A DNA stretch of 64,000 bases from Escherichia phage phiWec187. Below are positions 16,751-61,948 of the stretch, piece by piece. Numbering within the stretch: position 1 is the stretch's first letter; each line of letters begins with the position of its first letter. The notes under the pieces were generated by a model, which did not search any database, was not told where the DNA came from, and saw only the letters and a program-made list of their open reading frames with translations. The stretch is from sequence record LC739536.1. One strand, given 5' to 3'. The translations under genes and the position numbers were made by a program.

Positions 16751-19700
16751 TCAATGACAACTAGCCCATGAGTTACCAACATCGTAACCAGCAGTGAGAG
16801 GTACATTAAGATTGTAATACTCACCAGCTTTATTAACAGCGATAGATGCTAATTCTCCAGCACGACTGTAGGCTGTAAACCAACCACCTTTCGGAGATTC
16901 ATGTACGTTAGCCCAAATCTTGCCAGTACGTTTCTCTTCCTCTTCTTTCCAGGTATTAACTTTATCCAAACATTCTTTATCAATTTTCTTTTGTTCTTCT
17001 GGATCATCAACTTGAGTCCAACCTAAAGATTCTTTAGAGAACCATTTAAAATGCACCAGATCACGAGTTACTTCAAGCTGTGCTTCATCGTGATATGCAA
17101 TCATTTGTTGAACGAATGACTTATTTTTCCAGTCATCAACAAAAAAGTCAACAGCTAATCCTTCTTCTTCGATAAGATCGTCGTAGATAACCATTGCTCT
17201 TTTTGCACAAATAACACCACCACTCTGGAACAGAGAGTTAAGTATTGCGTGTGCAGATCGTGTAGGTACTTTTCTACCATCAATACCGAGAATGTATTTC
17301 TTACCTGTTTTAACCCAAAAATCATGCAGACGTTCTTTAAGAAGCGCAAGAGGTTTTGCAGCTTCCCAGAAAGCATCGTATACAAGCTGTCCTGTATACA
17401 TATCACTACCTATAGTTTTTGCTACTTTTGCAGCTTGAGCGCCGTACGTGCAGTTACCTGTCAACGTGATAAAACCATTCTGACGCATAACAAAAGATTC
17501 ATTCTTGGTTGAGATACAGAATACATCTGTTACTCGTGAAAAAGCTCTTGTCAACCTCTGTCCTGAAATAGTTTGTCCGTTATTGATTGCCAACGTTAAC
17601 ATGCCATCTTTTTGAACAGAACCATACGCAATATTACCTGTCATATTGATAGCCAAAGAAACAGCGTCGCTAATCTTACCTTTCTTTTGACGGATAACAA
17701 GACTGCCGTTTGGACGCTTATGACCATCTGCCATCCAGAATGCCTCTAAGAATGCTTCCAACACAGCTTGACCTTGATTAGCAATTAATGTAGACCAGTC
17801 CACTTCGTGCTTATTTTGACCCACTTCAACGCCACATTTAGTCAAAAATTCCCTAAACTGACTCTTATTAGGACGTAATGAATGCATCGTTCCAGATACA
17901 TACTCGTCAAATGTGAAGATATCTCCCACAGCCTCACGTGCTTCTTCTAAGAATTTTTTCTCATCTTGATCTACCGTGACTGTAATACCCATTACTTTAT
18001 TTCTGGCTTTGCCAGACCACTTATAGTAGCCATCCGAAAGAAGCCAGCCTAAGAAACGACCTTCTTCCACTGTTAGAGTAGACACCACACCAGATCGCCC
18101 TGCTGCAATTATGTTTGACTCCGAGTTTAAATCCTCTGTAGATCTACGCTCCACTTGCATATACTTAACATTGTTACCATCTGATCGCATAGTTTTTCTC
18201 TGTGCGTTAATCCACATATGATCGTTAGTAACTTCTACTTTGAACCACTTGTTACCGAGAGAGACAACTTCTGCATCGTTATAGTCCCACAGCTTAAGAA
18301 TAGGGGTATATTCGTAAAGAGCGGTGTGAGTATTATAAGATAAAACTTCATCCCCTACAAAAAGATCTTTACGTTTCTTCCAACCCGTTCTTGTTAACAC
18401 TTCCGTATTATCTACAGGTACACAACCGTATTTAACGCTCTTAGCAGGACCACGTTCAAACTTACGTCCAATAATATCAGTAATATGTTTTGCCATCATA
18501 GTATGCACATCGTTTGGTTTTTCTAACAGAAGTGCATTACAGTAAGCATGATCAGGATTATCATATCTCCACGTATAATGCGACTCAATCTTCGCCTCTA
18601 ATGAATCAAAGTCATAACCAATCTGGAAGTATTTAGGAACCTCTACACCAAATAAGTTACGCATTTCATATCCGTACAGAGATGTTACACGTGGGATATT
18701 TGCTACTAACCTATGTTTCATACGAGATGTAGCTGCATCACACGTTGCAGCAGGAGTTGGTATACGACCATCAGCCCTTACTGCTGCCAGATAACCTTTA
18801 TCGTAATCCTCTTCTTCTTCCCAATCAGCACCACCCCCTAGAATAGAGTTCCTACGGTGTTTATACGTAAGATACTGCACAACCTGCGTAGCATAAGGAA
18901 ACTTTTCACCTAGTGCTTCCAAGTTAGGACAAATATCTTTCTCTTGCCCTTTTGTAAAGGAAGGGTTAGTAAGCACTTTAACACCACGACCTTTAGCTTT
19001 AGCAATACGATCTCTTAGTTTCCATTCCAAAGTTTCTGGTGTGCACTCCAGATGATCACATCTGTCCTGGCAGAAATTAGATGCTAATGTTTGATCAACA
19101 TAGTCACGAATGGCTTTCTCCATTTGTGCTTCATCTTTCTTAATCTTAGTGCCAGATTTAAGAGTGATATCTTTATCTTTATATTCAGATGGACTCCAAC
19201 CTAAACCAACTAACCAATTTTTAATATGTGTTGTGTCGTCTAAAGTAGCAGGTACTGTAGGATCACAAATAGGTTCTTCTGCTGGAATAGGTAGTTTAAA
19301 CTCTTTACCTAATGCAAATAACCACCAACCATCTTCTTTTTGTACAAGTTCACCAGAATGTTTCTCTGCAAACTTTATCATGTTACTTGAAGGTTCACCA
19401 TTCTTTTTAAACTGTAGTTTAGGTGGAATGAATGATTTCAAATAACCTTTAGTAGCAGGTTTAGGAGGTAGCACAGGTTCTGCCTCTAAACGACATGCTT
19501 CCATTCGAGCATCCAGATCACGAATATTATCTTCTGCTTGTTTCATGTTGAAAGCAAAGCCACGGTGCTCTTGACGTGTAATAATATCAGCTACACGTTG
19601 TTCTAAGTTAAATGGTTCAGACCACTTATTATAATCACCCCACTCTTCCATCAAATAACGGAACACTGCGGTGTTAGCTTTGTTATCGTAAATACAGTAA

Positions 19701-20299
19701 TACAGCATATCTGCTGCAAATGTTCTAAATCTTTCAGTTTCAGGGATGTTTTTTCTGAAATCAATTTTAACATCCCCTCCAGCTTTCTTAGATAACTCTG
19801 CCAGACTATGACCACCGAAGCGATCAGGGTTTAGTGTCTTACTTAAGATCATAGTATCACAAATTTCAATGTTACTATTACCCCAAGTATTGTACTTAAT
19901 ACTGTAGTTGAGTTTAAAAAATAATTTAATTGCCAGTAAGTCGAAGTTAATGATGTTGTGTCCAACTACTTTGGTAATTTTATAGTTTGAATTACCTTTA
20001 AATTTACCTGTTCCGTTTACAAAATCAGGAAAATCTTTAAGAGGGAAATGGGTATATTCTAAATGCTCATATTCCTCCAGTCGGTATTCATACTTTCCGT
20101 CAGTCTCAACATACGGACGACCATCGAAAAGATATTTATCACCATCATGGAAAGCAATAATCTCTCCAGTATCATGACTTTCGCACACAATACAGTGCAT
20201 TGCAAAACTATCTTTTAAACGATATGGACTTGCCAAGTAATCTACACTTTCGTCATTAAGCAAGTTGTTACTTTCAATGTCGAAAGTAAAAGCTCCCAT
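16751..20299 (-). CDS. family A DNA polymerase with N-terminal 3'-5' exonuclease, interrupted by an intein
   Basis: Motif B region RGPAKSVKYG...CTYGAQAAK split by a 324-aa insert; motif C AYHDEAQLE; N-terminal exonuclease-like FDIESN. Confidence 0.85.
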   Translation of the reverse strand: MGAFTFDIESNNLLNDESVDYLASPYRLKDSFAMHCIVCESHDTGEIIAFHDGDKYLFDGRPYVETDGKYEYRLEEYEHLEYTHFPLKDFPDFVNGTGKFKGNSNYKITKVVGHNIINFDLLAIKLFFKLNYSIKYNTWGNSNIEICDTMILSKTLNPDRFGGHSLAELSKKAGGDVKIDFRKNIPETERFRTFAADMLYYCIYDNKANTAVFRYLMEEWGDYNKWSEPFNLEQRVADIITRQEHRGFAFNMKQAEDNIRDLDARMEACRLEAEPVLPPKPATKGYLKSFIPPKLQFKKNGEPSSNMIKFAEKHSGELVQKEDGWWLFALGKEFKLPIPAEEPICDPTVPATLDDTTHIKNWLVGLGWSPSEYKDKDITLKSGTKIKKDEAQMEKAIRDYVDQTLASNFCQDRCDHLECTPETLEWKLRDRIAKAKGRGVKVLTNPSFTKGQEKDICPNLEALGEKFPYATQVVQYLTYKHRRNSILGGGADWEEEEDYDKGYLAAVRADGRIPTPAATCDAATSRMKHRLVANIPRVTSLYGYEMRNLFGVEVPKYFQIGYDFDSLEAKIESHYTWRYDNPDHAYCNALLLEKPNDVHTMMAKHITDIIGRKFERGPAKSVKYGCVPVDNTEVLTRTGWKKRKDLFVGDEVLSYNTHTALYEYTPILKLWDYNDAEVVSLGNKWFKVEVTNDHMWINAQRKTMRSDGNNVKYMQVERRSTEDLNSESNIIAAGRSGVVSTLTVEEGRFLGWLLSDGYYKWSGKARNKVMGITVTVDQDEKKFLEEAREAVGDIFTFDEYVSGTMHSLRPNKSQFREFLTKCGVEVGQNKHEVDWSTLIANQGQAVLEAFLEAFWMADGHKRPNGSLVIRQKKGKISDAVSLAINMTGNIAYGSVQKDGMLTLAINNGQTISGQRLTRAFSRVTDVFCISTKNESFVMRQNGFITLTGNCTYGAQAAKVAKTIGSDMYTGQLVYDAFWEAAKPLALLKERLHDFWVKTGKKYILGIDGRKVPTRSAHAILNSLFQSGGVICAKRAMVIYDDLIEEEGLAVDFFVDDWKNKSFVQQMIAYHDEAQLEVTRDLVHFKWFSKESLGWTQVDDPEEQKKIDKECLDKVNTWKEEEEKRTGKIWANVHESPKGGWFTAYSRAGELASIAVNKAGEYYNLNVPLTAGYDVGNSWASCH
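17453..18424 (-). mobile_element. intein with LAGLIDADG-type homing endonuclease inside DNA polymerase motif B
   Basis: Begins CVPVDNTEVL (intein block A), ends ...LTGN with +1 Cys; internal GWLLSDGYY and LEAFWMADGH resemble the two LAGLIDADG helices; removal restores K-x3-YG-x2-YG. Confidence 0.75.
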
Positions 20300-30523: not shown

Positions 30524-30756
30524 TACACATTCTCCTCTTTTACCAAGTCCATCGTTGAACTATCAAAACCATCTTTAGAAGAATAGGTATAGACAGAACG
30601 TAGTTCTCGCAGGACAGTGAATACATTAGGATCATCTAACCAAGCATCCTGGAGGAGAACATAACGATCTTCATTGTCATACTGAACAGCAATCATAGAA
30701 CCAGACAGTTTGTAAATTTTAATATTCATAATATATTTCTCCTTAAAGTAGACCAC
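30523..30756 (-). CDS. hypothetical small protein
   Basis: 77-aa ORF. Confidence 0.3.
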   Translation of the reverse strand: MVYFKEKYIMNIKIYKLSGSMIAVQYDNEDRYVLLQDAWLDDPNVFTVLRELRSVYTYSSKDGFDSSTMDLVKEENV

Positions 30757-31846
30757 GTTTAACAGTTTGAATCATACCATCTTCAAGAGATTGCACTTCT
30801 TGAATGTAATCAATACGCGCAGCACGGGCTTCAGTGTTGATTCGGTTAGTTTCTTCCAACATTTTAACTAAGTTTTCTTGATCGCGACGTAATGTTTCAA
30901 TATCCAATACTTGACGATTAGCAAGTTGTGTAGCTTCAATTTGGTTTTGTGCAGCCAGATCACTACCCATTGCAATAGCAGCATTAAATTCATTCAGCAC
31001 ATTGTTCTGTGTATCGGCTGCTTTCTTCTGGCGTAGACTTTCAATATACATAGAAAAGTTTGCAGAGTAAGCAGGGATAACATTATTCACAATATTACGG
31101 GCTGATCGCATCAAACTTGCAGATACTTTCTGCATACTTTGTACACGTGGCCCCATCTGAACACACAGTAAACGCAAGGCTTTCAGGTCTGCAATACGAA
31201 TTTCAAGCAGATCCATAGTATCACGAGTACGTTGACGCTCTTCTACTTCATTTTCAGGTAGTGTATTAAGGCGAACTTCTTCTTTTTCATAAGTAGCTGT
31301 TAGAAGCTCTATATCCCTGTTTAAGCTAAGAGCATATTTTGCAATAGCCTCTTCTAAACGTTGCAGATATCGTAAAGAATCTTCTTCTTTTTTCAAGTCT
31401 GTTTGTAGTGTCTTTACCAAACCTTCAATACGATTATTGATGGTGTCAAATTCACCAAACAAATCTTCTTTCATACCTAATACTTTCTTAACCAGTTTAC
31501 CTAAGCCTTTAGATTGTTTAATAGAGTTAGGATCAAGTTGCTTTGCTTGCTTAATAAGTGCAGTTAAACGTTCACTCATTTCATCCCCCTGAGATGAACG
31601 CTGGTGTTTAAGCACTTCAGCATTAAGGTTACGAAGAGTAAGTCCTGCATCAGCACCAACTTGTTCAATCTCTTCACGAGACATTGGAGGCAGCATTTGT
31701 ACAGGTCGTGCAACAGCAGGGGCATATACAGGGCTTGCATCCATAGCACTTGGAGCAAACAAAGACTTACTTTTTTCTGTTGTTGCCGTGAATACACTCA
31801 TTTCAGACGGTTTGCTTTTTACGGCACTGATAAAAGGACTGGACAT
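30743..31846 (-). CDS. coiled-coil protein, possibly TelA-like
   Basis: 367 aa, mostly helical/coiled-coil; size and neighbourhood (TerD, vWA, TerC) fit TelA but no motif was verified. Confidence 0.3.
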   Translation of the reverse strand: MSSPFISAVKSKPSEMSVFTATTEKSKSLFAPSAMDASPVYAPAVARPVQMLPPMSREEIEQVGADAGLTLRNLNAEVLKHQRSSQGDEMSERLTALIKQAKQLDPNSIKQSKGLGKLVKKVLGMKEDLFGEFDTINNRIEGLVKTLQTDLKKEEDSLRYLQRLEEAIAKYALSLNRDIELLTATYEKEEVRLNTLPENEVEERQRTRDTMDLLEIRIADLKALRLLCVQMGPRVQSMQKVSASLMRSARNIVNNVIPAYSANFSMYIESLRQKKAADTQNNVLNEFNAAIAMGSDLAAQNQIEATQLANRQVLDIETLRRDQENLVKMLEETNRINTEARAARIDYIQEVQSLEDGMIQTVKRGLL

Positions 31847-31914
31847 TCAATTTCCTCCGTATTCTTTAGTAGATGGTGATACCTCTGTACCACCATCATA
31901 ACACAAATTAAGTA

Positions 31915-32766
31915 TTAAACAAACATATCTAAATAATTTGTAGTAATAAATGCTCCATCTGCTTCCAGATTAACATAACCAGTAGCATTAGTGGTTAAGA
32001 AATCCAGATCGAAGGACTCTTTAACACCCCGTACCTCAACACGAGAGATATCGAATACAGGTAGTGTAACAGCCTCTTCGTGCAATACCGTACCTTTGTA
32101 GGTTGCCTTAATGATAAACTTGATATTACCCGTTCCAGCATCATACAAAACACTTTCAAACCCTTTGAGAGTATACTTATCACCAGAAGTGAAGTGCAAA
32201 GTTGCTTTGTTTACAGTACGTTTTTTACGAGGAGTTCCTTTCACACGTTTATGATCACTACGTTTTTTGTATTTAGGAATGAATACAAACGATACATTGT
32301 GAAGAAAGGTATCAACATCAAGGATTTTAATATCCTCTGTTGCAGCAAATTTTGAAGTTGTTGCATCAAAATGCTTTTCCCGGCGATCATACATAAAGAT
32401 ATCAAACCGATCTTCTAAATCAAACAAATTATGTATTTTAATTTCAGAATGCTTGCGCATTGCAGCAACCTTGAACTCTTCAAAACGTGGGTGTTCTACA
32501 AGTTCTTCAAGTTTTACACCAAAGACAGTATATTGCTTCGGAGTTTTTTCTGGTGTTGGCATTACAGAAGCATAATCACCGATTGCGCTCTTAAAGCAAA
32601 ATTGTTCTTGACCTGTATTTTTACCAACGAATTTACAGTATTCGTCATCGTGCATACTTTCCTGGGTAGTACCAACAAACTCAAAACCATCTTTATTCTT
32701 CTCAAGAATTTCTTGATTAAAGATCCAACCTTCCAGGCGATATACTTTACCAACTTCTAGTTTCAT
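31915..32766 (-). CDS. hypothetical protein
   Basis: 283-aa ORF. Confidence 0.4.
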   Translation of the reverse strand: MKLEVGKVYRLEGWIFNQEILEKNKDGFEFVGTTQESMHDDEYCKFVGKNTGQEQFCFKSAIGDYASVMPTPEKTPKQYTVFGVKLEELVEHPRFEEFKVAAMRKHSEIKIHNLFDLEDRFDIFMYDRREKHFDATTSKFAATEDIKILDVDTFLHNVSFVFIPKYKKRSDHKRVKGTPRKKRTVNKATLHFTSGDKYTLKGFESVLYDAGTGNIKFIIKATYKGTVLHEEAVTLPVFDISRVEVRGVKESFDLDFLTTNATGYVNLEADGAFITTNYLDMFV

Positions 32767-32801
32767 CTGTTTCTCCTTCTTATTTAATCTGTATTAAATT
32801 A

Positions 32802-33392
32802 TTAACGACGACGTGAGCTACTAAAACTACGTTTCGACGAAGAATAACTTTTCGAAGACTTACTATAAGAGCTAACAGGACTTGAGTAAGACTTACCAGC
32901 AGAGTAATCACTATTCACTTTTGTTGTTGATGGGCGTGAATACGTTTGTACACTTTGCTGCTTAATTGTGTTTTGTTTAGTGGTTGTATATGTATTTCCT
33001 TGTTTATCATAAAAACTATGCTTTTGTGTTGTATATGCTTTACTATTAGTTGTAGGAGCAGCGTTGTTATTGATAATTGTTGTATTGCTACCGCCATCTC
33101 TATAACCACCACCGCCACTATTACCACTCAACATATGACCAAGAAGCATACCTGTAGCGAACTCACCTACGCCAGAAGAACCACTGCCGCCTCCTTGAAC
33201 AACAACTGTTGAAGGTTGTGCAGGTGCTGCTTGAACAACTTGAGGTGCAGGCTGATTTACATATTGTTCATCTACCATCTGATTTGGTGTTTGTTGGTAA
33301 CGTTGGTTTTGTACATTTTCAGAATCATCACAACCTACCAGCAATGCACTACCTAATACAACTGCAACAATAAAAGATTTAATGTTTTTCAT
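32802..33392 (-). CDS. lipoprotein, low-complexity Ser/Gly/Thr-rich
   Basis: Start at MKNIKSF after GAGAGGG; signal peptide with lipobox LVGC; C-terminal Ser/Tyr/Lys-rich tail. Confidence 0.5.
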   Translation of the reverse strand: MKNIKSFIVAVVLGSALLVGCDDSENVQNQRYQQTPNQMVDEQYVNQPAPQVVQAAPAQPSTVVVQGGGSGSSGVGEFATGMLLGHMLSGNSGGGGYRDGGSNTTIINNNAAPTTNSKAYTTQKHSFYDKQGNTYTTTKQNTIKQQSVQTYSRPSTTKVNSDYSAGKSYSSPVSSYSKSSKSYSSSKRSFSSSRRR

Positions 33393-33585
33393 TTGTAACC
33401 CTCTCATTTAAAGTCTCAACACAATTTTTAAAATCTCTAGAGAAACAATACATCTGTTCTCCGTTCCTGTTGATAGTAATTGTATGGTTATCAATATATG
33501 TTGTCAAGATAAAAATCAAACAAAACAACCCTAGAGCAAAACAAATATTTTCAAACAGAATCCAAAGAACACGTAAAACCACCAT
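33379..33585 (-). CDS. small membrane protein
   Basis: 68 aa with hydrophobic stretch FALGLFCLIFILTTYI. Confidence 0.3.
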   Translation of the reverse strand: MVVLRVLWILFENICFALGLFCLIFILTTYIDNHTITINRNGEQMYCFSRDFKNCVETLNERVTNEKH

Positions 33586-33624
33586 CAGATCACCTCAATA
33601 AAGCCCCCGAAGGGGCTTAATGAA

Positions 33625-34602
33625 TTAAGCAACAGCCTGGTCTTCTTTTTCAGGGAAGATTAAACTTGCAATAACACCCAGCCCAAGAGTACCTAACACA
33701 ATATACATACTGATCGTCGGATCAATGTGTGCTGGTAGGAAACTCACTTTTGCGTGCAGAGTTTCTGCAAACGGATGATACATCAGTTTTACACCCACAA
33801 ATACCAGGACTACGATAACTGCTTTCTCCAGATGAACCAAATACTTCAGTGCAACACTAAGAACAAAGAACAGAGCACGTAAACCTAAGATAGCACAGAG
33901 CATCGAAGAGAACACCAGCAGAGGTTCTTGTGTCACTGCAATCACTGCTGGAACAGAGTCTACTGCAAAGATTACGTCAACCATTTCCATTACAAACACA
34001 CAAACCAGAGCCGGAGTTGCTACACGAACACCATTTTTGATTGTGAAGAACTTCTCACCATCCATCTGATCAGATACAGGGAACAGCTTACGAACAATGC
34101 GAGTAGCCCAGTGTTTAGAGTAATCAACTTCTGCATCATTATCTCCAGCGAATACCATTTTAGCCGCACAGAAAAGGATGACCGCACCGAAGAAGATATT
34201 AACATACCAGCCCAAACTCAACAAGTAAGTGCCTACTGCTACAAACACACCTCGGAAGACAATCGCACCTGCAATACCCCAAAGTAGAATCTTGTGCTGC
34301 AAGTGTGTGCTTTTAATACCAAAACTTGCGAATACTGCCACAAATACTACTAAGTTATCTACAGAAAGAGATTTCTCCAACACATACCCACTTAAGAACA
34401 AGCTCGCAAAATCAGCACCGTGTTGGAAGTATACAAAACCATAGTAGGCTAATGATACCCCAATCCAGAAAATTGACCAGCCAATTGCAGATTTAAATGA
34501 AATTTCTTTGTTTTCTCTGTGTCCAAAGAAATCAATACAAATCGACAAGACTAAAATACCCACTAAAACAACCACATCAATAATTGGGAAACCCAGTTGC
34601 AT
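33625..34602 (-). CDS. terC: TerC-family integral membrane protein
   Basis: Multiple TM helices plus the two TerC signature blocks LEKSLSVDNLVVFVAVF and VIFAVDSVPAVIAVTQEPLLVFSSMLCAILGLRAL. Confidence 0.8.
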   Translation of the reverse strand: MQLGFPIIDVVVLVGILVLSICIDFFGHRENKEISFKSAIGWSIFWIGVSLAYYGFVYFQHGADFASLFLSGYVLEKSLSVDNLVVFVAVFASFGIKSTHLQHKILLWGIAGAIVFRGVFVAVGTYLLSLGWYVNIFFGAVILFCAAKMVFAGDNDAEVDYSKHWATRIVRKLFPVSDQMDGEKFFTIKNGVRVATPALVCVFVMEMVDVIFAVDSVPAVIAVTQEPLLVFSSMLCAILGLRALFFVLSVALKYLVHLEKAVIVVLVFVGVKLMYHPFAETLHAKVSFLPAHIDPTISMYIVLGTLGLGVIASLIFPEKEDQAVA

Positions 34603-34679
34603 TCTTTTCTCCTCTTTAATGCGGAGGACAATCCTCCGCTCTATGTCTTATACTATAAACTGTTTTTAAAGAAAGTCAA

Positions 34680-34928
34680 CTAGTTCAGTTCTGTAATTTT
34701 AAGTTTATCTTCTTTGTTAATGATAGGGAAAGCTACAGCATCACCTACATCATCAATAAAGCAAATAGCAAGACCACCTTCCACTTTGCTAACCTGACCA
34801 TTAAAGGCATGATACGGGGCAGGAACTTCATCTCCATCTTCAATGAGAATAGCCTCGTAAACCTTGCCGATAGTACAATCACGGGTGTTTATAAATTTTT
34901 CAAGCACTTCAACATTTACTTTACGCAT
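34680..34928 (-). CDS. hypothetical protein
   Basis: 82-aa ORF. Confidence 0.35.
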   Translation of the reverse strand: MRKVNVEVLEKFINTRDCTIGKVYEAILIEDGDEVPAPYHAFNGQVSKVEGGLAICFIDDVGDAVAFPIINKEDKLKITELN

Positions 34929-34942
34929 ATAAAGATCCTCTC

Positions 34943-35149
34943 TTATTTGTTAGATTGAAAGATACCACGGAGTACCGCAAGAATGAACGTCACACAGACT
35001 ACACTCCAAAACGTTACAGGAACATGATGCCAGTCTAAGCCGATAATGTCAATCATATAATTGTATGCTAAAAGCAGTAGCCAACTAGGGATTAACACAA
35101 TCAAGAACACAACAATAAAACAACCTAATACTGCTAAAACACCTGCCAT
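34943..35149 (-). CDS. small membrane protein
   Basis: 68 aa, two predicted TM helices. Confidence 0.35.
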   Translation of the reverse strand: MAGVLAVLGCFIVVFLIVLIPSWLLLLAYNYMIDIIGLDWHHVPVTFWSVVCVTFILAVLRGIFQSNK

Positions 35150-35158
35150 ACTTTCTCC

Positions 35159-35875
35159 TTATTTCAGTTTGTAAACAATTACATTTAAACCTTTGTTTAC
35201 TAGAGTTTCTTCGATCATAAGTTTTACAATATTCCAAGAACCTCCAGCCAAACCACAACCAAGCATTGGTAAACCTACAATTTTACCGCCTGAAGATACA
35301 ACATCGTCTCCCATACTATCTAGCGCATTGTAGATAGCTTCATAATTCAGGTCACGCTTACCTTCCTCACGACGACTATAACCATATTGTCCATATAAAT
35401 TATAAATTGTCAAATTGTTTTCTGTATATTTGGTAAACGTACCTAATTTTTTATAATCACCACGTTTAGTGGCACAATCTGCTTTAAACGCACCAGGCCA
35501 CTTGCTTTTAATTTTTGGTGCAATACCACTACCCATAGTGCAAAAACAGTTACAGCAGTGTGCTATAGCGTCTATATCGCCTCTCTCGGCTGCTGCTAAA
35601 AGATCACCGTATACCTCAATGATACCTGCTGGATAACTTGTTACAATTTCATCTTCCCAGTACATTTTCTCTACACCACCGATCAGTGCAAAGTTTTGTG
35701 TAATGCGATCATCAATATAGTTAAGCCCTGAAACATACACAGCGTATTCATCCTGTGCTGTAATACCTTGCACACGAATTCTTAAGACACCATCTTTATC
35801 TGTTGCTACACGCCCAAAATCTTTTTCTGTAATATTGGTGATAGGATCTCCGAAAGTCATTACTTTATTAGACAT
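35159..35875 (-). CDS. macro-domain protein (ADP-ribose binding/processing)
   Basis: AIAHCCNCFCTMGSGIA and GLPMLGCGLAGG resemble the paired Gly-rich loops of macro domains; start at ATG 35875 after AAAGGGGA. Confidence 0.55.
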   Translation of the reverse strand: MSNKVMTFGDPITNITEKDFGRVATDKDGVLRIRVQGITAQDEYAVYVSGLNYIDDRITQNFALIGGVEKMYWEDEIVTSYPAGIIEVYGDLLAAAERGDIDAIAHCCNCFCTMGSGIAPKIKSKWPGAFKADCATKRGDYKKLGTFTKYTENNLTIYNLYGQYGYSRREEGKRDLNYEAIYNALDSMGDDVVSSGGKIVGLPMLGCGLAGGSWNIVKLMIEETLVNKGLNVIVYKLK

Positions 35876-36725
35876 AATAATCCCCTTTAACATTAGATTT
35901 GTTGATAATGTTGCTTTCAAAAAATTGACGTAGGAAATCAAAGTTCTCTTTGTATTTTTCAATGTTATTGTAACCTTCTGCAAGGCAACCAAAGAACAGT
36001 TGTTCTACATAATACAAAGGAAGTTGTGAAAGTGCAATTTTAAAATCAACTTCGCTTTGACTCATTAGATACTTAATAGGACGAACCAAACATTTAGCAT
36101 CAGTTTCTTGCTTAATCATTTTAATAAAAGCTGCCAGATTATTGATATAGTTGAAGTTAAGTGCAGCTTCGGTATTGGCTTCTGTACCTTCATACTTTGC
36201 AAAGTACAGGAAAAACGTATCGTTTTCAACACCTTCTTTGTCTAAAATTTCAATAAGTTTTTCTTCGTGTGTTCCTGTAATATTAACATCATCAATGAAA
36301 ATCAGAGTTTTATTACCCCAGAAATCACGATTGATAGAGAAAGTGTCACCATCGATCAAAGCCTTACGATCTTCTTTGCTAAGAAATCCATAATCATTGA
36401 TATAACTCACTTTACGATGAACGATATCCCACTCCACTGCTTTACCTCCTTTGATAGAGATTAGGTAGTTGAGGTGATCTACAAAATGCTCAGATAACAC
36501 TGTAGCTGCATTTTTCACATAATTATATGGAGATGGAATAACAACAAAACTTTCATTTACTAGTCGTTCTTCATATTTAGAAAAGAAACTTTCAGCTAGA
36601 ATGCGTCCCATTCTTTTTGCTGCCTGGTTACTGCCAAACTTTAGTTTGGAATAATCTGCAATGTTAAATTTTGCTTCCTTCAGGTTAGTAAAAGTATTAG
36701 CAAAATGTTGAATTTGATTACGCAT
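35868..36725 (-). CDS. phosphoribosyltransferase-like protein (type I PRTase fold)
   Basis: TLIFIDDVNITGTHEE matches the PRPP-binding motif (hydrophobic run, DD, xxTGxT). Confidence 0.5.
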   Translation of the reverse strand: MRNQIQHFANTFTNLKEAKFNIADYSKLKFGSNQAAKRMGRILAESFFSKYEERLVNESFVVIPSPYNYVKNAATVLSEHFVDHLNYLISIKGGKAVEWDIVHRKVSYINDYGFLSKEDRKALIDGDTFSINRDFWGNKTLIFIDDVNITGTHEEKLIEILDKEGVENDTFFLYFAKYEGTEANTEAALNFNYINNLAAFIKMIKQETDAKCLVRPIKYLMSQSEVDFKIALSQLPLYYVEQLFFGCLAEGYNNIEKYKENFDFLRQFFESNIINKSNVKGDYYV

Positions 36726-37392
36726 TAATAAGTTCCTCTTTTTTAAGTTTAGCCAACAAGTCTTCTGGATTAATAATATGACAGAACTTCATCCCTATGT
36801 CAACAGCTTTTCCATCATAAATCAAACTATCTCCAACGTGTAAAATCTCCTCTGGTGCGAGATCAAACGTTACCATTTCATCAAAAGAGAGTTTAAAAAA
36901 CCTAGGATCTGGTTTACACAAGCAAAACTCATCAGAAAAATGCATAAAGTCAAATGGTAATTTTGTTAAGCCAGAATATACAGCTAAGAAACTACCTGGT
37001 ACAAAATTAGTATTGCTCTTAATACTCAAAGAATAGGTTGAACTTAGCTCTTCCAACTTCTTGCAAAGTTCAGGGTTCAATATTGGAGGATGTTTTATAA
37101 ACATTGCTAAACAGTCTCTTTTTAACCCATCCACTTTATCAAGATCAATGTTCAAACGAGTAGAAAGTGTTTCCCAAGCATTCCTAGACGTTCCACAAAT
37201 GCCTTTTTCTGCTTTTAAATCCAGGAGAGTTTTTACCTCTTTATATACGGTAGCTGCTTCTGCCTCAGAACAAGAGGCATACTCGGCAATAACCTTGTTG
37301 CGTTCTTCTGCATACAAAGGATTAGCAGTAATAAGAGTATTCCATACATCAAAAGAAATATGCTTAACAGTCATTTTTAATCCTCCGTCCAA
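36718..37392 (-). CDS. HAD-like hydrolase
   Basis: N-terminal ISFDVWNTL (variant HAD motif I) and C-terminal ILHVGDSLIYDGKAV (GDxxxD motif). Confidence 0.4.
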   Translation of the reverse strand: MDGGLKMTVKHISFDVWNTLITANPLYAEERNKVIAEYASCSEAEAATVYKEVKTLLDLKAEKGICGTSRNAWETLSTRLNIDLDKVDGLKRDCLAMFIKHPPILNPELCKKLEELSSTYSLSIKSNTNFVPGSFLAVYSGLTKLPFDFMHFSDEFCLCKPDPRFFKLSFDEMVTFDLAPEEILHVGDSLIYDGKAVDIGMKFCHIINPEDLLAKLKKEELINA

Positions 37393-37781: not shown

Positions 37782-38942
37782 TTAGTAAGAACGACCACCA
37801 AACACATACTCTGTGTAGTTTTTACGTTCTTTGTTTTTAATAACAACTTCAATGTTGTTGCCTTTATCATCGGTGAACACAAAGTGATAACCGTCACCAC
37901 CCATTGTACGGATGTGTTTTTCATCATACGTCAGCAAGATACGGTCTACACCCCAGTAGTAGTCACCTTCTTCGTCTTTATCTTCTACGGTAACGACTCC
38001 TTCCATTTCAGGAAGATGCTCTTCTCCTGACTTATGATCTACAGCTACAACATAACGATTACCGCTAAACAAACCTTGTGCTGTCATACCGTCAATATCT
38101 GTATCTGACGAAACATCTCCTGTACGATCTACACCGTTAACTTTCAGAAGTTTAACTTCTTTTGCAGCATAGCGGTGTTCAGTAATACTGATACCCATTA
38201 ATGCAAGTGCATCAGAGAATTTGTCATTAGGGTAACGGTTAAGTTCTTCTACTAATGACTGAACAATATCAAAGTTCAAGTCCACGGAAAGATTATAAAG
38301 CGTTTCAAAATCTGGTAAAAAGGCTTTGTTCTCCAGATTTTTAGCCAGATAGTCATCCATAGTAGCTTTAGGTAGTTTCTTATAGCTAAAGCTGTAGAAA
38401 ATACGGCTAGGACGATTACGCAAAAATTCTGATACATAACCATCGTTTTTAGTCAATACAAACAGCTTGTCGTAGCCACCTACACCATCCAGCAGGGTAA
38501 GCAAGCCATCCTGTGCATCTTTTTCAGCATACAGTTTATCAAATTCATCGATCATAATCATCACAGGTTGTGTGATTTTAGACATAAAATTGATAAAGCC
38601 TTCGCCATTAAAAGCACTACCGATAGAAATAGTAGGAATACCCATTTCACGAAGAGCAGAAGACAGCATTTTAGCTTGCAAAGTTTTACCGCTACCCTTC
38701 GTACCCTCAAGGAGAACACCTGTGTTTTTACCTTTGCGGCTAAGGAACGTCTTGATAATACGTTCTGATTTATCATCAGTATCACCGTATGTTACTGAAG
38801 GGACTTCCATATCGTTTTTAGGATACAGGAAGAACTCACCACTTTGAGTAACACCTACACCAAAAGTTCCTGCTGGAATTTCTTCAATATCTGTACCAGA
38901 CTTCTGACGCAGGAAGATTTGATTGCCGAATACTGTAAACAT
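37782..38942 (-). CDS. P-loop ATPase, paralog 1
   Basis: Walker A GTKGSGKT, Walker B IMIDEFDK; clearly homologous along its length to the 54446-55573 ORF. Confidence 0.6.
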   Translation of the reverse strand: MFTVFGNQIFLRQKSGTDIEEIPAGTFGVGVTQSGEFFLYPKNDMEVPSVTYGDTDDKSERIIKTFLSRKGKNTGVLLEGTKGSGKTLQAKMLSSALREMGIPTISIGSAFNGEGFINFMSKITQPVMIMIDEFDKLYAEKDAQDGLLTLLDGVGGYDKLFVLTKNDGYVSEFLRNRPSRIFYSFSYKKLPKATMDDYLAKNLENKAFLPDFETLYNLSVDLNFDIVQSLVEELNRYPNDKFSDALALMGISITEHRYAAKEVKLLKVNGVDRTGDVSSDTDIDGMTAQGLFSGNRYVVAVDHKSGEEHLPEMEGVVTVEDKDEEGDYYWGVDRILLTYDEKHIRTMGGDGYHFVFTDDKGNNIEVVIKNKERKNYTEYVFGGRSY

Positions 38943-54445: not shown

Positions 54446-55573
54446 ATGAAATACACGATTTATGGTGATATTGTAAGTGTAAATAAAGATATGGGCGTGG
54501 AATCTAACTATCTTCCACCTGGATTCTATACTGTTAGTCGTGATCCCCTTGGCAATTATTTTTTAAGCCGTGGTAATCTGACAGGTGTACCGGATGTTCT
54601 GTATGGTGAAACAGAAAAACGAGCAAATCACGTTATCCGTACATTCCATCGCCGGAGTGCACAAGGTAAAAACACAGGCTTGCTTCTGACAGGAACTAAG
54701 GGCAGTGGTAAAACTATGTTAGCCAAACTCATTAGTCGTGACCTTGTAGAAGAAGGTATTCCAACTATTATGGTTACTCAAGCCTACAGTGATGCTAATT
54801 TCATTGAACTTATTAGCAAGATCACCGACAAAGCAGTGATTATTTTTGACGAGTTTGATAAAGTGTATGAGAAGAAACAAGATCAAGAAGCACTTCTCAC
54901 TTTGTTAGATGGTACTGGCAGTGGTAATAAACTGTTTATTCTGACTAAAAACAGTGGTTTTATTTCTGAATTCTTTTTAAATCGTCCTAGTCGTGTGTTT
55001 TATAATTTTAATTATGATAAAATCTCACTAGAAACTATGATTGACTATTTAGATAAAAACCTAGATAACAAAGCACACTTTGATAATTTCCAAAGACTTT
55101 GGGATGTAAGTTTAGAGTTGTCCTTTGATGTGATCCAAGGTATAGTAGAAGAACTTAATTTCTACCCTGATTTATCCTTTAAAGAATGCATCTCTATGAT
55201 GGGCGTTTCTTTGGGTGGTGGTAATAAGTGGGATATCAGCAGCGTTGTTATTAATGGGAAACTTCAGAAAGTTAGCTGGGTATCTAGTTGGCATAACTTC
55301 ACACCTGCAATCTTTTTAGGTGGTTCGTGCACACTGGACGTGTACTTGTCATCTCCAAGTGATGCAGATTCTAAAGAAGCCCTTGCTAATAGCTCTTACG
55401 TGGTTTTTGATGATGAAGGCGATGCTCGAATTCCATTGAATGCGACAAAAATGAAAGCAGATCTTATTACAGGCGGTAAAATCGTTGTGTTTAGTGATGA
55501 TCCAGAAGATTCTTTCCGTATTGTTCTGGAACCAACTATCACCAATGGTGCAACTTTGGCAAGTGTGTTTTAA
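54446..55573 (+). CDS. P-loop ATPase, paralog 2
   Basis: Walker A GTKGSGKT, Walker B IIFDEFDK; homologous throughout to 37782-38942; terminator follows. Confidence 0.6.
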   Translation: MKYTIYGDIVSVNKDMGVESNYLPPGFYTVSRDPLGNYFLSRGNLTGVPDVLYGETEKRANHVIRTFHRRSAQGKNTGLLLTGTKGSGKTMLAKLISRDLVEEGIPTIMVTQAYSDANFIELISKITDKAVIIFDEFDKVYEKKQDQEALLTLLDGTGSGNKLFILTKNSGFISEFFLNRPSRVFYNFNYDKISLETMIDYLDKNLDNKAHFDNFQRLWDVSLELSFDVIQGIVEELNFYPDLSFKECISMMGVSLGGGNKWDISSVVINGKLQKVSWVSSWHNFTPAIFLGGSCTLDVYLSSPSDADSKEALANSSYVVFDDEGDARIPLNATKMKADLITGGKIVVFSDDPEDSFRIVLEPTITNGATLASVF

Positions 55574-55587
55574 GTAAGCCAGCAAAT

Positions 55588-55612
55588 AAAAACCCGCTCC
55601 GGCGGGTTTTCT
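55588..55612 (+). terminator. rho-independent terminator
   Basis: aacccgc-tccg-gcgggtt followed by tttc. Confidence 0.6.
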
Positions 55613-55647: not shown

Positions 55648-56637
55648 ATGGCAGCACCAAAATCATGGGAACAATATAAAGAAGAGTGTATACCAATAGC
55701 AGAGAGTAAGCAAATCCAAATCTTAGGATGGACGGGACAATGGAAAGGGGTCCACACAAAACTTGATTTGTTGTGCCATTGTGGTTATAAATGGGATACT
55801 ACAAGTATTAACAGTTTTAAATGTGGTAGCGGTTGTCCACAATGTAGGAGGAAGAATATAAGGAAGTCACAAACAATGTCCGACGATCAACATATTGCAG
55901 ATTTCTTTTCTACAGGGAAATTTAAGGAAGGCACTATCTTCACTAACACAGGAACACGGGGTAAAGGATGTAGGAATATTATCTGGATGGTTGAATGTCC
56001 TGTTTGCTCTCATGATGAATATGTTCAAGCAGGTGTTTGTGATGGTAAATTTTACTCTGAAGGAGATAACCTTAAACGAGGGTATATTCCGTGTCGTTGT
56101 GGGAACTATCGGTATACAGAAGACCAGATCACCTATAGGGTAAAAAAGGAAGTAGAAGGGAAAGGGTATGTCTGGGTAGATTGGATTACCAAACCCTCTT
56201 CTATAGGTAAGTTTAAATATCTTTGTCTTGTGCATGGGGAGCAGATAGGGAGTGCTCATAATTTATTAAGCCTCGGTCGAGGTTGTCCTATGTGTGCTGG
56301 TCATAGTCAGCAGCAGTTATATATTAATATTGTTAAGGATGATAATATTATAGTTGCTCTTAAGTTTGGTATAGCTAAAGATAGTGATAGACGATTAAAA
56401 ATTCAAAATAGCCGTAATATGTTTCCTATGGAGCGTATTTGTTTATATGATTTTAGCACAGTAAAACAATGTAAGGCTGCTGAAAGAGCTATAAAGAAAA
56501 AATTAAAAACTGGTATTTTAACGGAAAGAGAGTTGAAAGACGGTTATACAGAAACAGTAAGTGTTTCTGATTTGGAAAATCTTCAAAAAATTATTACACA
56601 ATATGGTGGCAAATTAGTATACAGTAAGGAGATGTAA
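55648..56637 (+). CDS. zinc-ribbon-rich protein, possible nuclease
   Basis: Repeated CxxC pairs (CGSGCPQC, CPVCSH, CRCGNY, GRGCPMC); C-terminal YINIV...KFGIAKD is weakly GIY-YIG-like. Confidence 0.35.
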   Translation: MAAPKSWEQYKEECIPIAESKQIQILGWTGQWKGVHTKLDLLCHCGYKWDTTSINSFKCGSGCPQCRRKNIRKSQTMSDDQHIADFFSTGKFKEGTIFTNTGTRGKGCRNIIWMVECPVCSHDEYVQAGVCDGKFYSEGDNLKRGYIPCRCGNYRYTEDQITYRVKKEVEGKGYVWVDWITKPSSIGKFKYLCLVHGEQIGSAHNLLSLGRGCPMCAGHSQQQLYINIVKDDNIIVALKFGIAKDSDRRLKIQNSRNMFPMERICLYDFSTVKQCKAAERAIKKKLKTGILTERELKDGYTETVSVSDLENLQKIITQYGGKLVYSKEM

Positions 56638-57189
56638 ATGCGGATTACTGATAAGTATGTGTTCTTCTTTTCAGCAAAAGATGAATTTAGCAACTGGTAT
56701 CTATCATCTTTTATTGAACCTTTAGCACCCAAGTATAATAATTCTATTACAAGTTCTGTTGAATTTACTTGTGTGGAACAATATATGATGTGGAGAAAAG
56801 CATGTTTGTTTTATGATTACAGTATTGCATCTTCTATTTTAACCGGAGATCTAAGATATACAGGAGAAAAAGAACAAGCATATTATAAGCGACTAGGCAG
56901 ATTAGTTAAAGATTATGATGAAGATACCTGGACTTCTTTACGGGAGAAGATTGTCAAACGTGGTTTGTATCTTAAATACACACAAAATGAAGATCTCAAA
57001 AATAAACTTATAGCTTACGCAGATAAGGAGTTTGTAGAGGCAAGTCCTTATGATTCTATTTATGGTATCAAAATGGGGATGTGGGATCGGGACGTGGAAA
57101 ATAAGGATTGTTGGAAAGGACAAAATCTTTTAGGAAAATGGCATACAGACCTTGCTGTTTATCTAAAAGCCCACTCTGATATTTCCTGA
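56638..57189 (+). CDS. NADAR-domain protein (YbiA-like)
   Basis: FFFS...FSNW, EQYMMWRKA, EASPYDSIYGIKMG and GQNLLGK blocks match the NADAR/YbiA pattern. Confidence 0.6.
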   Translation: MRITDKYVFFFSAKDEFSNWYLSSFIEPLAPKYNNSITSSVEFTCVEQYMMWRKACLFYDYSIASSILTGDLRYTGEKEQAYYKRLGRLVKDYDEDTWTSLREKIVKRGLYLKYTQNEDLKNKLIAYADKEFVEASPYDSIYGIKMGMWDRDVENKDCWKGQNLLGKWHTDLAVYLKAHSDIS

Positions 57190-57405
57190 TATTTTGAAAA
57201 TTTTTATTTTTATAAAAAGGGGTGTGGGTTTCATGTACGGAAATTCACCCTCTGAATAATATATTCAGAGTAAATATTATTTTGTACTCTGTTAATAAAC
57301 TATTTAATTTGTTTGTTGGATTATGATATCTGGTTTTTAAAAGGCATACTATCTCTTAACTACTATTTATAACAGAACAGTAAAATCATTTTTATAAAAA
57401 GGACA

Positions 57406-57610
57406 AAATTATTTAAAGTTTTTACAGATTTTTGGATACAAATTTTGAAAATGAAAAGTTCAAGTTTGGTCAAAATTATTTAAAGTTTTTGTATGTATTT
57501 CTATCCAGATTTTGAAAATGAAAACTTCAATTTTTTAAAAATTCCCCAGTTTATTTAAAGTTTTTTTGCCTTTTTCCGTAGAAAAATCAAAAATGAAAAG
57601 TTCAATTTCG
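57406..57610. repeat. three tandem ~65-75-bp direct repeats
   Basis: Each unit carries tatttaaagttttt then, about 20 nt later, tttgaaaatgaaaagttcaa. Confidence 0.7.
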
Positions 57611-57629
57611 TGTTTTTATAGGTGTGCGT

Positions 57630-57745
57630 ATGATAATCATTCTCATTTGTAAATGAGAATGATTATCATTTAATTATGTAAGTGATAATCATTCTCACTA
57701 AGAGAATGAGAATCATTAGCAAATGAGAATTTTTCTCATTTATAG
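57630..57745. promoter_or_regulatory. cluster of Fur-box-like palindromes
   Basis: Perfect 19-bp inverted repeat atgataatcattctcattt / aaatgagaatgattatcat (57630-57669) containing AATGATAATCATT, an exact 13-nt match to the core of the E. coli Fur box GATAATGATAATCATTATC; two more partial copies to 57745. Confidence 0.5.
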
Positions 57746-58001
57746 AATAACGCGCAGGGGTGGTGTTTGTCTCGCGCTCCCGTGTCCCCTCGCCATACAA
57801 TAAGAATAGCATAACTAACAACAAAAGCAAGCAATTATTTTTATCTTTACATTTCTTTACAAATTTATTTTAGACGAGCTACCGGCGATCAACCTTCCAA
57901 CCAGTGCCCCCTGGTATGTTAGCCCCGCCTTTACGCCGTGGGGTGGCGTTTCCTCTTCTGTATGTAAAACAGTATAAGCCCGATCCCTGGGCTTGTCAAG
58001 A

Positions 58002-58268
58002 TTATTTTTTGTTTTCTTGCCAGGATAGGACACCTAACCAAAAATACATGTCGCCCCGCGCCCCTGGCGGGATCTTGCTTTCCCCGCCGCCACTGCAAGC
58101 CCATAGATAACCATTAGCGAACGGATCAAAGTGATCTATTTCTTCCACCTTATGATCGCCCAGGTTGAGAACGGTTTCAACCTTTAAGCCCGTTGCGCTT
58201 GCTACCTGGTGCGCCGTGCCGCCTTGCCAGCCTAATGAGTGCATGAGGTGTAGAGTAGTATTTGTCAT
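58002..58268 (-). CDS. hypothetical small protein encoded in a GC-rich island
   Basis: 88-aa ORF with its own promoter and 5' hairpin-RBS architecture (gcgcc-ctggtt-ggcgc, then caaagaaaggg...ATG); GC content far above the flanks. Confidence 0.45.
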   Translation of the reverse strand: MTNTTLHLMHSLGWQGGTAHQVASATGLKVETVLNLGDHKVEEIDHFDPFANGYLWACSGGGESKIPPGARGDMYFWLGVLSWQENKK

Positions 58269-58315
58269 GGTATCGCCCTTTCTTTGATGTGCGCCCTGGT
58301 TGGCGCGGTAGAAAG

Positions 58316-58344
58316 ATAATAGCCCTTTCCTTTATAGATAGCAA
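58316..58344 (-). promoter_or_regulatory. sigma70-like promoter for the 58268 gene
   Basis: Minus-strand TTGCTA, 17-nt spacer, TATTAT. Confidence 0.45.
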
Positions 58345-58380
58345 GCAAAAAAAAGAAATGAAAAAAGATTAAAAAAGGGG

Positions 58381-58409
58381 TTGACGTTCCTCACCTGGTA
58401 GCGTATTAT
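58381..58409 (+). promoter_or_regulatory. sigma70-like promoter (divergent partner)
   Basis: TTGACG, 17-nt spacer, TATTAT. Confidence 0.5.
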
Positions 58410-58536
58410 TCATCTTGTCGAGGGGGGCGAGGCACAACGACAATAAACAAAAGGAGGGCGCAATGTAGGACGGGCAAAGGTGAGGATCTCCATAATCCAC
58501 CGTCACAATAACATTACTTATAAAAGGTTGATAACG

Positions 58537-61653: not shown

Positions 61654-61681
61654 TTGACAAGATAACTAAAATCAGTAAAAT
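61654..61681 (+). promoter_or_regulatory. early promoter
   Basis: TTGACA, 16-nt spacer, TAAAAT; hairpin gggcggca-atag-tgccgccc at 61692-61712. Confidence 0.6.
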
Positions 61682-61732
61682 GTAATGCATAGGGCGGCAA
61701 TAGTGCCGCCCCTAGTGAGAGAGATTATCAAC

Positions 61733-61948
61733 ATGGCTAATATCCGCACCTTGTTAAAAAATGCAAAGCAAGTTTTATTTTCAGATGACGAATATTTTAA
61801 TAAAGATATTACAGGCGTGAAAAATTTAAAAGACGTGAAGGATGTTATCGGTATCCGTGGATCTTTACGTAAAGGTGACATATACGGTAACAAGGTGCAG
61901 TATAAACTGTCAAAAGATTATGATTTTACTTTGACAATTATTTCATAA
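61733..61948 (+). CDS. early protein, hypothetical
   Basis: Start at the internal ATG after the 5' hairpin; the listed longer ORF would begin inside the promoter/hairpin. Confidence 0.5.
   Translation: MANIRTLLKNAKQVLFSDDEYFNKDITGVKNLKDVKDVIGIRGSLRKGDIYGNKVQYKLSKDYDFTLTIIS

Follow-up and report, generated by a model that had tools for sequence, protein, structure and literature searches.

A stand-alone NADAR gene of Escherichia phage phiWec187, orthologous to adfN^Bas60 and very probably active against DarT1

The NADAR gene and its genomic setting

The window analysed here, a 64-kb stretch of the Escherichia phage phiWec187 sequence (record LC739536.1), is that of a Justusliebigvirus (Stephanstirmvirinae), a phi92/VEcB-like E. 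coli myovirus. Up to 13.4 kb its genes lie on the plus strand; those between 13.4 and 52.6 kb are minus-strand genes, and from about 52.9 kb the plus strand is used again. In the related phage EmilieFrey (Bas61) this last plus-strand block runs for approximately 30 kb and contains mostly small hypothetical genes. The NADAR-domain gene is located at 56638..57189 (+) as an ATG-to-TGA open reading frame (ORF) of 183 amino acids. The earlier note had described its position as the edge of the early region, which is a fair account of the strand layout but only roughly right for the gene, placed about 4 kb inside the ~30-kb block. A tRNA scan of the window returned none.

A Shine-Dalgarno sequence (AAGGAG, 56626..56631, +), read directly from the DNA, lies 6 nt 5' of the NADAR ATG. 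The TAA of the preceding gene (56635-56637) abuts this ATG, which suggests co-transcription and translational coupling of the two genes. The preceding gene (55648-56637, +) encodes a CapR/T5orf172 endonuclease-like protein with three CapR-homology repeats and a T5orf172 (GIY-YIG-like) domain, assigned to phrog_681 'endonuclease'. Its counterpart in PaulScherrer (Bas60) has 138 extra N-terminal residues, which are further copies of the same repeat, and the shared part is 80% identical, compared with 99% for the NADAR protein. It is a variable homing-endonuclease-like gene that is possibly mobile and apparently translationally coupled to the NADAR gene. A terminator-like hairpin (55589-55610) separates the endonuclease-NADAR pair from an upstream ATPase gene, and no strong sigma-70-like promoter was found after this hairpin. 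The window encodes two paralogous AAA-type ATPases (phrog_2376), at 54446-55573 (+) and 37782-38942 (-), which are 47% identical over 254 amino acids. One of them is annotated as 'FtsH-like protease' in BASEL records, and the ATPase domain is the only one detected.

The ORF matches the Pfam family NADAR (PF08719, DUF1768) with an E-value of 3.5e-36 and 125.4 bits (gathering score 35.1); the alignment spans positions 9-154 of the 163 in the profile and begins at residue 13 of the protein. With TIGR02464, the NCBIfam model for riboflavin biosynthesis intermediates N-glycosidase, the score is 109.4 bits and the cutoff 73.7; the PHROG family phrog_1017 is matched at E=5.9e-50. The NADAR/YbiA-type assignment of this ORF, made beforehand from the sequence, is thus borne out by matches far above the cutoffs in Pfam, NCBIfam and PHROG. 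The gene is the sole NADAR copy in the 64-kb window. Membership in NCBIfam NF053876, the 'DS32_2' anti-phage NADAR family, was rejected (26 bits vs a cutoff of 240).

At the DNA level, the NADAR locus is 98.6% identical to that of Escherichia phage VEcB and 96-98% identical to those of about fifty other phi92-like Justusliebigvirus phages, which include the BASEL phages PaulScherrer (Bas60), EmilieFrey (Bas61) and JohannJBalmer. The protein has the same length as bas60_0111 of Bas60 and shares 181 of 183 residues with it, the two differences (A178T and H179Q) being conservative and in the C-terminal tail. An identical count (181/183) is obtained with bas61_0107 of Bas61, where the differences are S62N and H179Q. 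The protein bas60_0111 was equated with the published AdfN^Bas60, as it is the sole NADAR match in the Bas60 genome. Near-identity and shared synteny make the phage gene an orthologue of adfN^Bas60: it is essentially the same protein, in the same genus, and its gene stands at the same place behind those for the ATPase and the endonuclease. The synonymous to nonsynonymous codon differences are 13:2 vs Bas61 and 7:2 vs Bas60; being mostly synonymous, they would fit purifying selection.

In 55 close records the gene keeps its position, as it does in the sister genus Phapecoctavirus, whose NADAR protein is 57-59% identical. The order of ATPase gene, endonuclease-like gene, NADAR gene and a gap of more than 1 kb without annotated gene is also found in Phapecoctavirus. 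The orthologues are labelled in GenBank as 'hypothetical protein', 'putative YbiA-like N-glycosidase', 'NADAR family protein' or 'GTP cyclohydrolase II', and in one record as 'DNA methyltransferase'. The label 'GTP cyclohydrolase II' probably traces to fusion proteins (e.g. 'ribA/ribD-fused uncharacterized protein'). Four records deposited as 'Campylobacter phage' with host C. jejuni (MG065639, MG065645, MG065656 and MG065689) match this E. coli phage in genome size and are 97.6% identical to it over the NADAR gene. They are probably mislabelled or contaminant Justusliebigvirus genomes.

Other features of the window

The 1.5 kb 3' of the NADAR gene contain no long ORF. Three AT-rich tandem direct repeats of ~70-79 nt occupy 57388-57608, the copies being 71-73% identical to the first. 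The repeats have the boxes TTATTTAAAGTTTTT and AAAATGAAAAGTTCAA in common and are recognisable in phAPEC8 too. Five overlapping or adjacent 15-nt palindromes, TGAKAATNATTMTCA, are placed at 57629-57742 (starts 57631, 57654, 57683, 57707 and 57724); they span 57631-57738, and 0.12 would be expected by chance. The palindromes are kept in Bas60 and Bas61, and in phAPEC8 they are diverged yet palindromic. They resemble the E. coli Fur box, whose 7-1-7 form is TGATAATnATTATCA; GAGAAT occurs in the aerobactin box. The cluster is a possible Fur-regulated site, Fur-titrating site or phage repressor operator, and the repeats, palindromes and adjacent promoters together give the region a regulatory or origin-like appearance.

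On the minus strand, a near-consensus sigma-70-like promoter (TTGACA-17-TATACT) extends from 57999 to 57971, and a conserved element of ~100 nt lies behind it, within 57862-57999 (-). This element is near-invariant between Justusliebigvirus and Phapecoctavirus, both Stephanstirmvirinae, and 77-88% identical in distant Vequintavirinae (phages of Klebsiella, Proteus, Cronobacter, Pantoea and Pectobacterium), mostly without annotation there. All of its 17 distinct copies (17/17) retain the promoter. RNAalifold proposes two helices with one fully compensated pair (A-U in 9 copies, G-C in 8), which lends weak comparative support to a structured element. Single-sequence folding of either strand gave no signal (z-scores of ~0.6), and an Rfam search with the element had no match at E<=0.1. 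The element is a candidate for a small RNA not described before or for a DNA element linked to transcription. The motif TGTAAAGA follows the element in two copies, and a second conserved promoter-like site is then found at ~57826 to 57797 (-).

The patch 57750-58470 has a GC content of 47.7% vs 37.7% for the whole window. An ORF of 88 amino acids at 58002-58268 (-) has no Pfam match and is hypothetical in relatives; in Vequintavirinae a CDS of ~62 amino acids takes the same position upstream of the conserved ~100-nt element. An E. coli origin of the GC-richer sequence at 57.7-58.5 kb was rejected, with no match in all complete E. coli genomes. Further downstream, a sub-threshold Rfam match to the hilD 3'UTR was recorded at 61679-61835 (-), with 39.8 bits vs a gathering score of 74 and E=1.7e-5. 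It covers 157 nt of the 310-nt model and is probably a chance match in AT-rich sequence.

The family-A DNA polymerase ORF (16751..20299) carries an in-frame insertion of 324 amino acids, from 18424 to 17453 (-), that is absent from Bas61. The insertion is placed between ...SVKYG and CTYGAQ..., begins with Cys (CVPVDN...) and ends with ...LTGN, after which a Cys follows. It contains two LAGLIDADG-like motifs, FLGWLLSDGYY and FLEAFWMADGHK. The Cys start, the Asn end followed by Cys and the two motifs make an intein with a homing endonuclease the probable identity of the insertion.

A second gene related to ADP-ribose chemistry, a macro-domain gene ~21 kb from the NADAR gene according to the earlier note, was found at 35159..35893 (-). 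It is 20.7 kb from the NADAR gene and not physically linked to it. The 244-amino acid product scores 30.8 bits with Pfam Macro (cutoff 22); the macro domain covers residues ~90-240, and a Pfam search of the first 94 residues found no match for the N-terminal ~90. The Bas61 counterpart is annotated as 'putative macrodomain protein'. Among solved structures, the protein matches 5E3B/SCO6735 of Streptomyces (E=3e-15), TARG1 (3e-10) and the DarG macrodomain 5M31 (9e-4), and it is 30% identical to T4 Tk.4/AdfM (E=1e-17). By profile match and homology, it is a member of the TARG1/DarG/AdfM-like group. Tk.4 was named AdfM in a 2025 preprint, according to which T4 needs AdfM to resist DarTG2, and a 2026 paper lists SCO6735 among the enzymes that reverse the thymidine ADP-ribosylation by DarT2. 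The macro-domain gene is a reasonable anti-DarTG2 candidate. The phage encodes two ADP-ribose-processing folds, the NADAR protein and a macro-domain homologue of T4 Tk.4/AdfM, as had been proposed. T4 has the same pairing, which makes a two-fold defence a reasonable inference.

The macro-domain gene belongs to a minus-strand block (30743-37392) that also encodes a ComF-like phosphoribosyltransferase (PRTase_3, 143 bits), a HAD hydrolase, TerC and TelA. This set recalls the Ter-associated 'nucleoside-like metabolite' neighbourhoods of Anantharaman, Iyer and Aravind. The macro domain may serve the chemistry of this Ter-like block, instead of or alongside the reversal of DNA ADP-ribosylation. In Bas61, at loci outside the window (L009 19023-19835; L010 4845-7543), a sirtuin-family protein and an adjacent pair formed by a Prs-like PRPP synthetase and a nicotinamide phosphoribosyltransferase (Nampt) are encoded. 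The pair resembles the NARP1 NAD+-reconstitution pathway. With the sirtuin and this pair, the phage group has several NAD/ADP-ribose-related genes beyond NADAR and Macro.

Fold and predicted active site

The structure of the NADAR protein was modelled with AlphaFold2 from an alignment of 49 homologues with 36-60% identity to it; the same alignment served for residue conservation. The model has a mean pLDDT of 96.9 and a pTM of 0.91. Its strands (7-10, 25-27, 41-43 and 131-134) are arranged around helices in a YbiA-like NADAR fold. A Foldseek search of the PDB returned 8BAU, the Phytophthora NADAR with ADP-ribose (E=1e-9, TM 0.77, 28% identity), and 2B3W, the E. coli YbiA (E=1.2e-5, TM 0.68-0.74); below E=5 no fold besides these two was retrieved. 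By sequence, the best solved relative is also the Phytophthora nicotianae protein (PnNADAR, 8BAU), with a phmmer E-value of 3e-12 against the PDB.

The residues of PnNADAR that contact ADP-ribose or act in catalysis have been defined by crystallography and mutagenesis (Schuller et al. 2023). The HMMER alignment to 8BAU was read against these residues, the numbering of the deposited chain being offset by +2 from that of Schuller et al. 2023. E43 and K50 of PnNADAR correspond to E47 and K54 of the phage protein, and E125 to E134 at the third catalytic position; the three are predicted to be catalytic. K75, R79, W89, R93 and D130 correspond to K84, R88, W98, R102 and D139, which are predicted ADP-ribose contacts, as is Y142, the counterpart of W133 (Trp-to-Tyr). 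Of the nine ADP-ribose-contacting residues in 8BAU, eight are identical in the phage protein and the ninth is Y142. A structure prediction and an active-site comparison, proposed beforehand as checks on the NADAR assignment, are in agreement with it: the model matches 8BAU, the catalytic residues align, and E47, K54 and E134 are all present.

E47, K54, K84, W98, E134 and D139 are invariant in the 49-homologue alignment, and the two residues that differ from Bas60 and the two that differ from Bas61 leave the predicted active-site positions untouched. The catalytic Glu-x6-Lys pair, E47/K54, has its counterparts in E43/K50 of PnNADAR, E88/K95 of E. coli C7 and E36/K43 of T4. The third catalytic position is Glu134, as in YbiA and the general NADAR families, whereas it is an Asp in DarG1 and a His in T4-type proteins. 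PnNADAR differs from the phage protein in being eukaryotic and in having W133 in place of Tyr142, and the phage clade has two insertions of its own, at residues ~27-40 and ~70-83.

Anti-DarT1 function and its alternatives

The phages Bas60, Bas61 and Bas62 share a NADAR protein named AdfN^Bas60 (Johannesman, Awasthi, Carlson and LeRoux, Nat Commun 2025;16:1598; preprint 2024). Produced ectopically, AdfN^Bas60 neutralises DarT1 in E. coli without phage and brings RB69, T5 and Bas25 back to full titre on DarTG1 hosts, while it is without effect on DarTG2 (Johannesman et al. 2025). In the published phylogeny, it groups with bacterial NADARs outside both the DarT-associated and the YbiA-like sets, an indication that it was acquired independently of T4 AdfN (gp30.3) (Johannesman et al. 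2025). The BLASTP and phmmer comparisons with gp30.3, YbiA and PnNADAR agree with this placement.

The phage gene very probably encodes a stand-alone NADAR ADP-ribosyl glycohydrolase, the Justusliebigvirus orthologue of AdfN^Bas60, that reverses the guanine ADP-ribosylation caused by DarT1. This rests on the NADAR assignment, the fold, the conserved residues and a sequence nearly identical to the tested AdfN^Bas60, all established in the present analysis. The activity against DarT1 in vivo is carried over from the literature on AdfN^Bas60, and the chemistry would be that of DarG1, PnNADAR and T4 AdfN. The proposal of the earlier note that the protein de-ADP-ribosylates DNA bases and so counters DarT-type toxins is supported, as anti-DarT1 activity was demonstrated experimentally for a protein identical at 181 of 183 positions.

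In the proposed mechanism, the DarT1 toxin of a host with a DarTG1-type toxin-antitoxin defence attaches ADP-ribose at the N2 amino group of DNA guanines during infection, and replication is blocked. A basic and aromatic pocket of the phage NADAR, formed by K84, R88, W98, R102, D139 and Y142, would hold the ADP-ribose. E47 and K54, together with E134, would then cleave the N-glycosidic bond between ribose and guanine, which would leave unmodified DNA and allow replication to proceed. The protein would act as an orphan type IV antitoxin whose target is the modification and not the toxin. Consequently, it should also counter other guanine-specific DNA ADP-ribosyltransferases.

The closest functional parallels are separated from the phage protein by distinct features. 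T4 gp30.3 (AdfN^T4) is likewise a stand-alone phage NADAR with the Glu-x6-Lys pair, and it counters DarTG1 by removing guanine-linked ADP-ribose. On the other hand, it is only 16% identical to the phage protein in a multiple alignment, and AdfN^Bas60 rescues uninfected cells from DarT1 toxicity whereas T4 AdfN does not. A relative of T4 AdfN was rejected, since the pairwise similarity is undetectable (BLASTP E=2.4) and T4 AdfN has a His where the phage protein has E134. DarG1 of E. coli C7 and of Geobacter lovleyi is a type IV antitoxin that acts without binding the toxin. It has the same fold and hydrolyses guanine-N2-ADP-ribose, the reaction presumed by analogy for the phage protein. However, DarG1 is encoded beside darT1 and the phage gene has no darT neighbour; the DarT1-associated NADARs have a basic N-terminal extension that the phage protein lacks, and at the third catalytic position DarG1 has an Asp (D171 in E. 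coli C7) instead of Glu134. A DarG1-like antitoxin was rejected on these three differences.

The Glu at the third catalytic position, in place of the Asp of DarG1 or the His of T4, makes wider or different substrates conceivable, and the substrate range may be wider than guanine or the main natural substrate may be another. One alternative is that soluble ADP-ribose derivatives, such as immune signalling molecules or RNA-repair by-products, or ADP-ribosylated RNA or cytosine are the main substrates, with the anti-DarT1 effect as one facet. From gene context, phage NADAR and Macro proteins have been argued to target mostly low-molecular-weight ADP-ribose derivatives, and the two families co-occur in DNA viruses above chance (Iyer et al. 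2022). Cytidine-ADP-ribose is removed by NADAR-family and YbiA-type enzymes, which also act on RNA, but not by DarG1s or T4 AdfN (2026 paper), and PnNADAR, the best solved match, is a member of the cytidine-ADP-ribose-removing family. An RNA ligase, a polynucleotide kinase, the sirtuin and the Prs-like and Nampt pair of Bas61 would also suit such substrates. However, the phenotype reported for AdfN^Bas60 concerns only the guanine ADP-ribosylation of DNA, with DarTG1 rescued and DarTG2 not, and this alternative is considered unlikely.

A role as metabolite damage-control enzyme, acting on riboflavin intermediates like E. coli YbiA, is highly improbable. YbiA, a host housekeeping gene product from a LexA-controlled operon, shares with the phage protein the core fold, the third-position Glu and a TIGR02464 score above the curated cutoff (109 vs 73.7 bits for the phage protein), and several GenBank labels read 'YbiA-like N-glycosidase' or 'GTP cyclohydrolase II'. 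The second of these labels is probably a carry-over from fusion proteins, though, and the similarity to YbiA is low, 24-27% in identity (27% over 82 amino acids, E=2e-8). At E<=0.01, phmmer retrieves PnNADAR from the PDB and not YbiA, the Bas61 genome annotation is without riboflavin genes, and the published phylogeny puts AdfN^Bas60 outside the YbiA-like group (Johannesman et al. 2025). Moreover, YbiA gives no protection from DarT1, whereas the near-identical AdfN^Bas60 has a direct anti-DarT1 phenotype (Johannesman et al. 2025). Self-immunity or regulation for a phage-encoded ADP-ribosyltransferase, whose own off-target DNA or RNA modifications the NADAR would remove, has hardly any probability: Bas61 does encode a sirtuin-family protein, but no ADP-ribosyltransferase is annotated in its genome (where many genes are hypothetical), none adjoins the NADAR gene by Pfam and PHROG searches, and AdfN^Bas60 acts in uninfected cells on a host toxin (Johannesman et al. 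2025).

The reversal of DarT1 guanine ADP-ribosylation is therefore the preferred reading of the gene, and a broader version of it can be put forward tentatively. Justusliebigvirus AdfN might be a broad-spectrum base de-ADP-ribosylase, as its nearest solved structure is PnNADAR and enzymes of the NADAR family and YbiA type also take ADP-ribose off cytidine and RNA. Together perhaps with the AdfM-like macro protein, which would cover thymine-ADP-ribose and DarTG2, the Prs-like and Nampt pair and the sirtuin, it might give Stephanstirmvirinae several layers of protection from ADP-ribosylation and NAD depletion. This extension is somewhat doubtful.

Since the family, fold and anti-DarTG1 function of a protein two residues away have been described before, the NADAR gene adds nothing to the knowledge of NADARs. 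The by-products of the analysis, namely the Fur-box-like palindromes, the conserved ~100-nt element and the polymerase intein, are of more interest than the NADAR gene. The case illustrates that a real counter-defence gene is recognisable from raw sequence alone, in a phage group of which many GenBank records mislabel it as 'hypothetical protein', 'GTP cyclohydrolase II' or 'DNA methyltransferase'. The therapeutic-type E. coli phages of this group would probably resist DarTG1-type defence.
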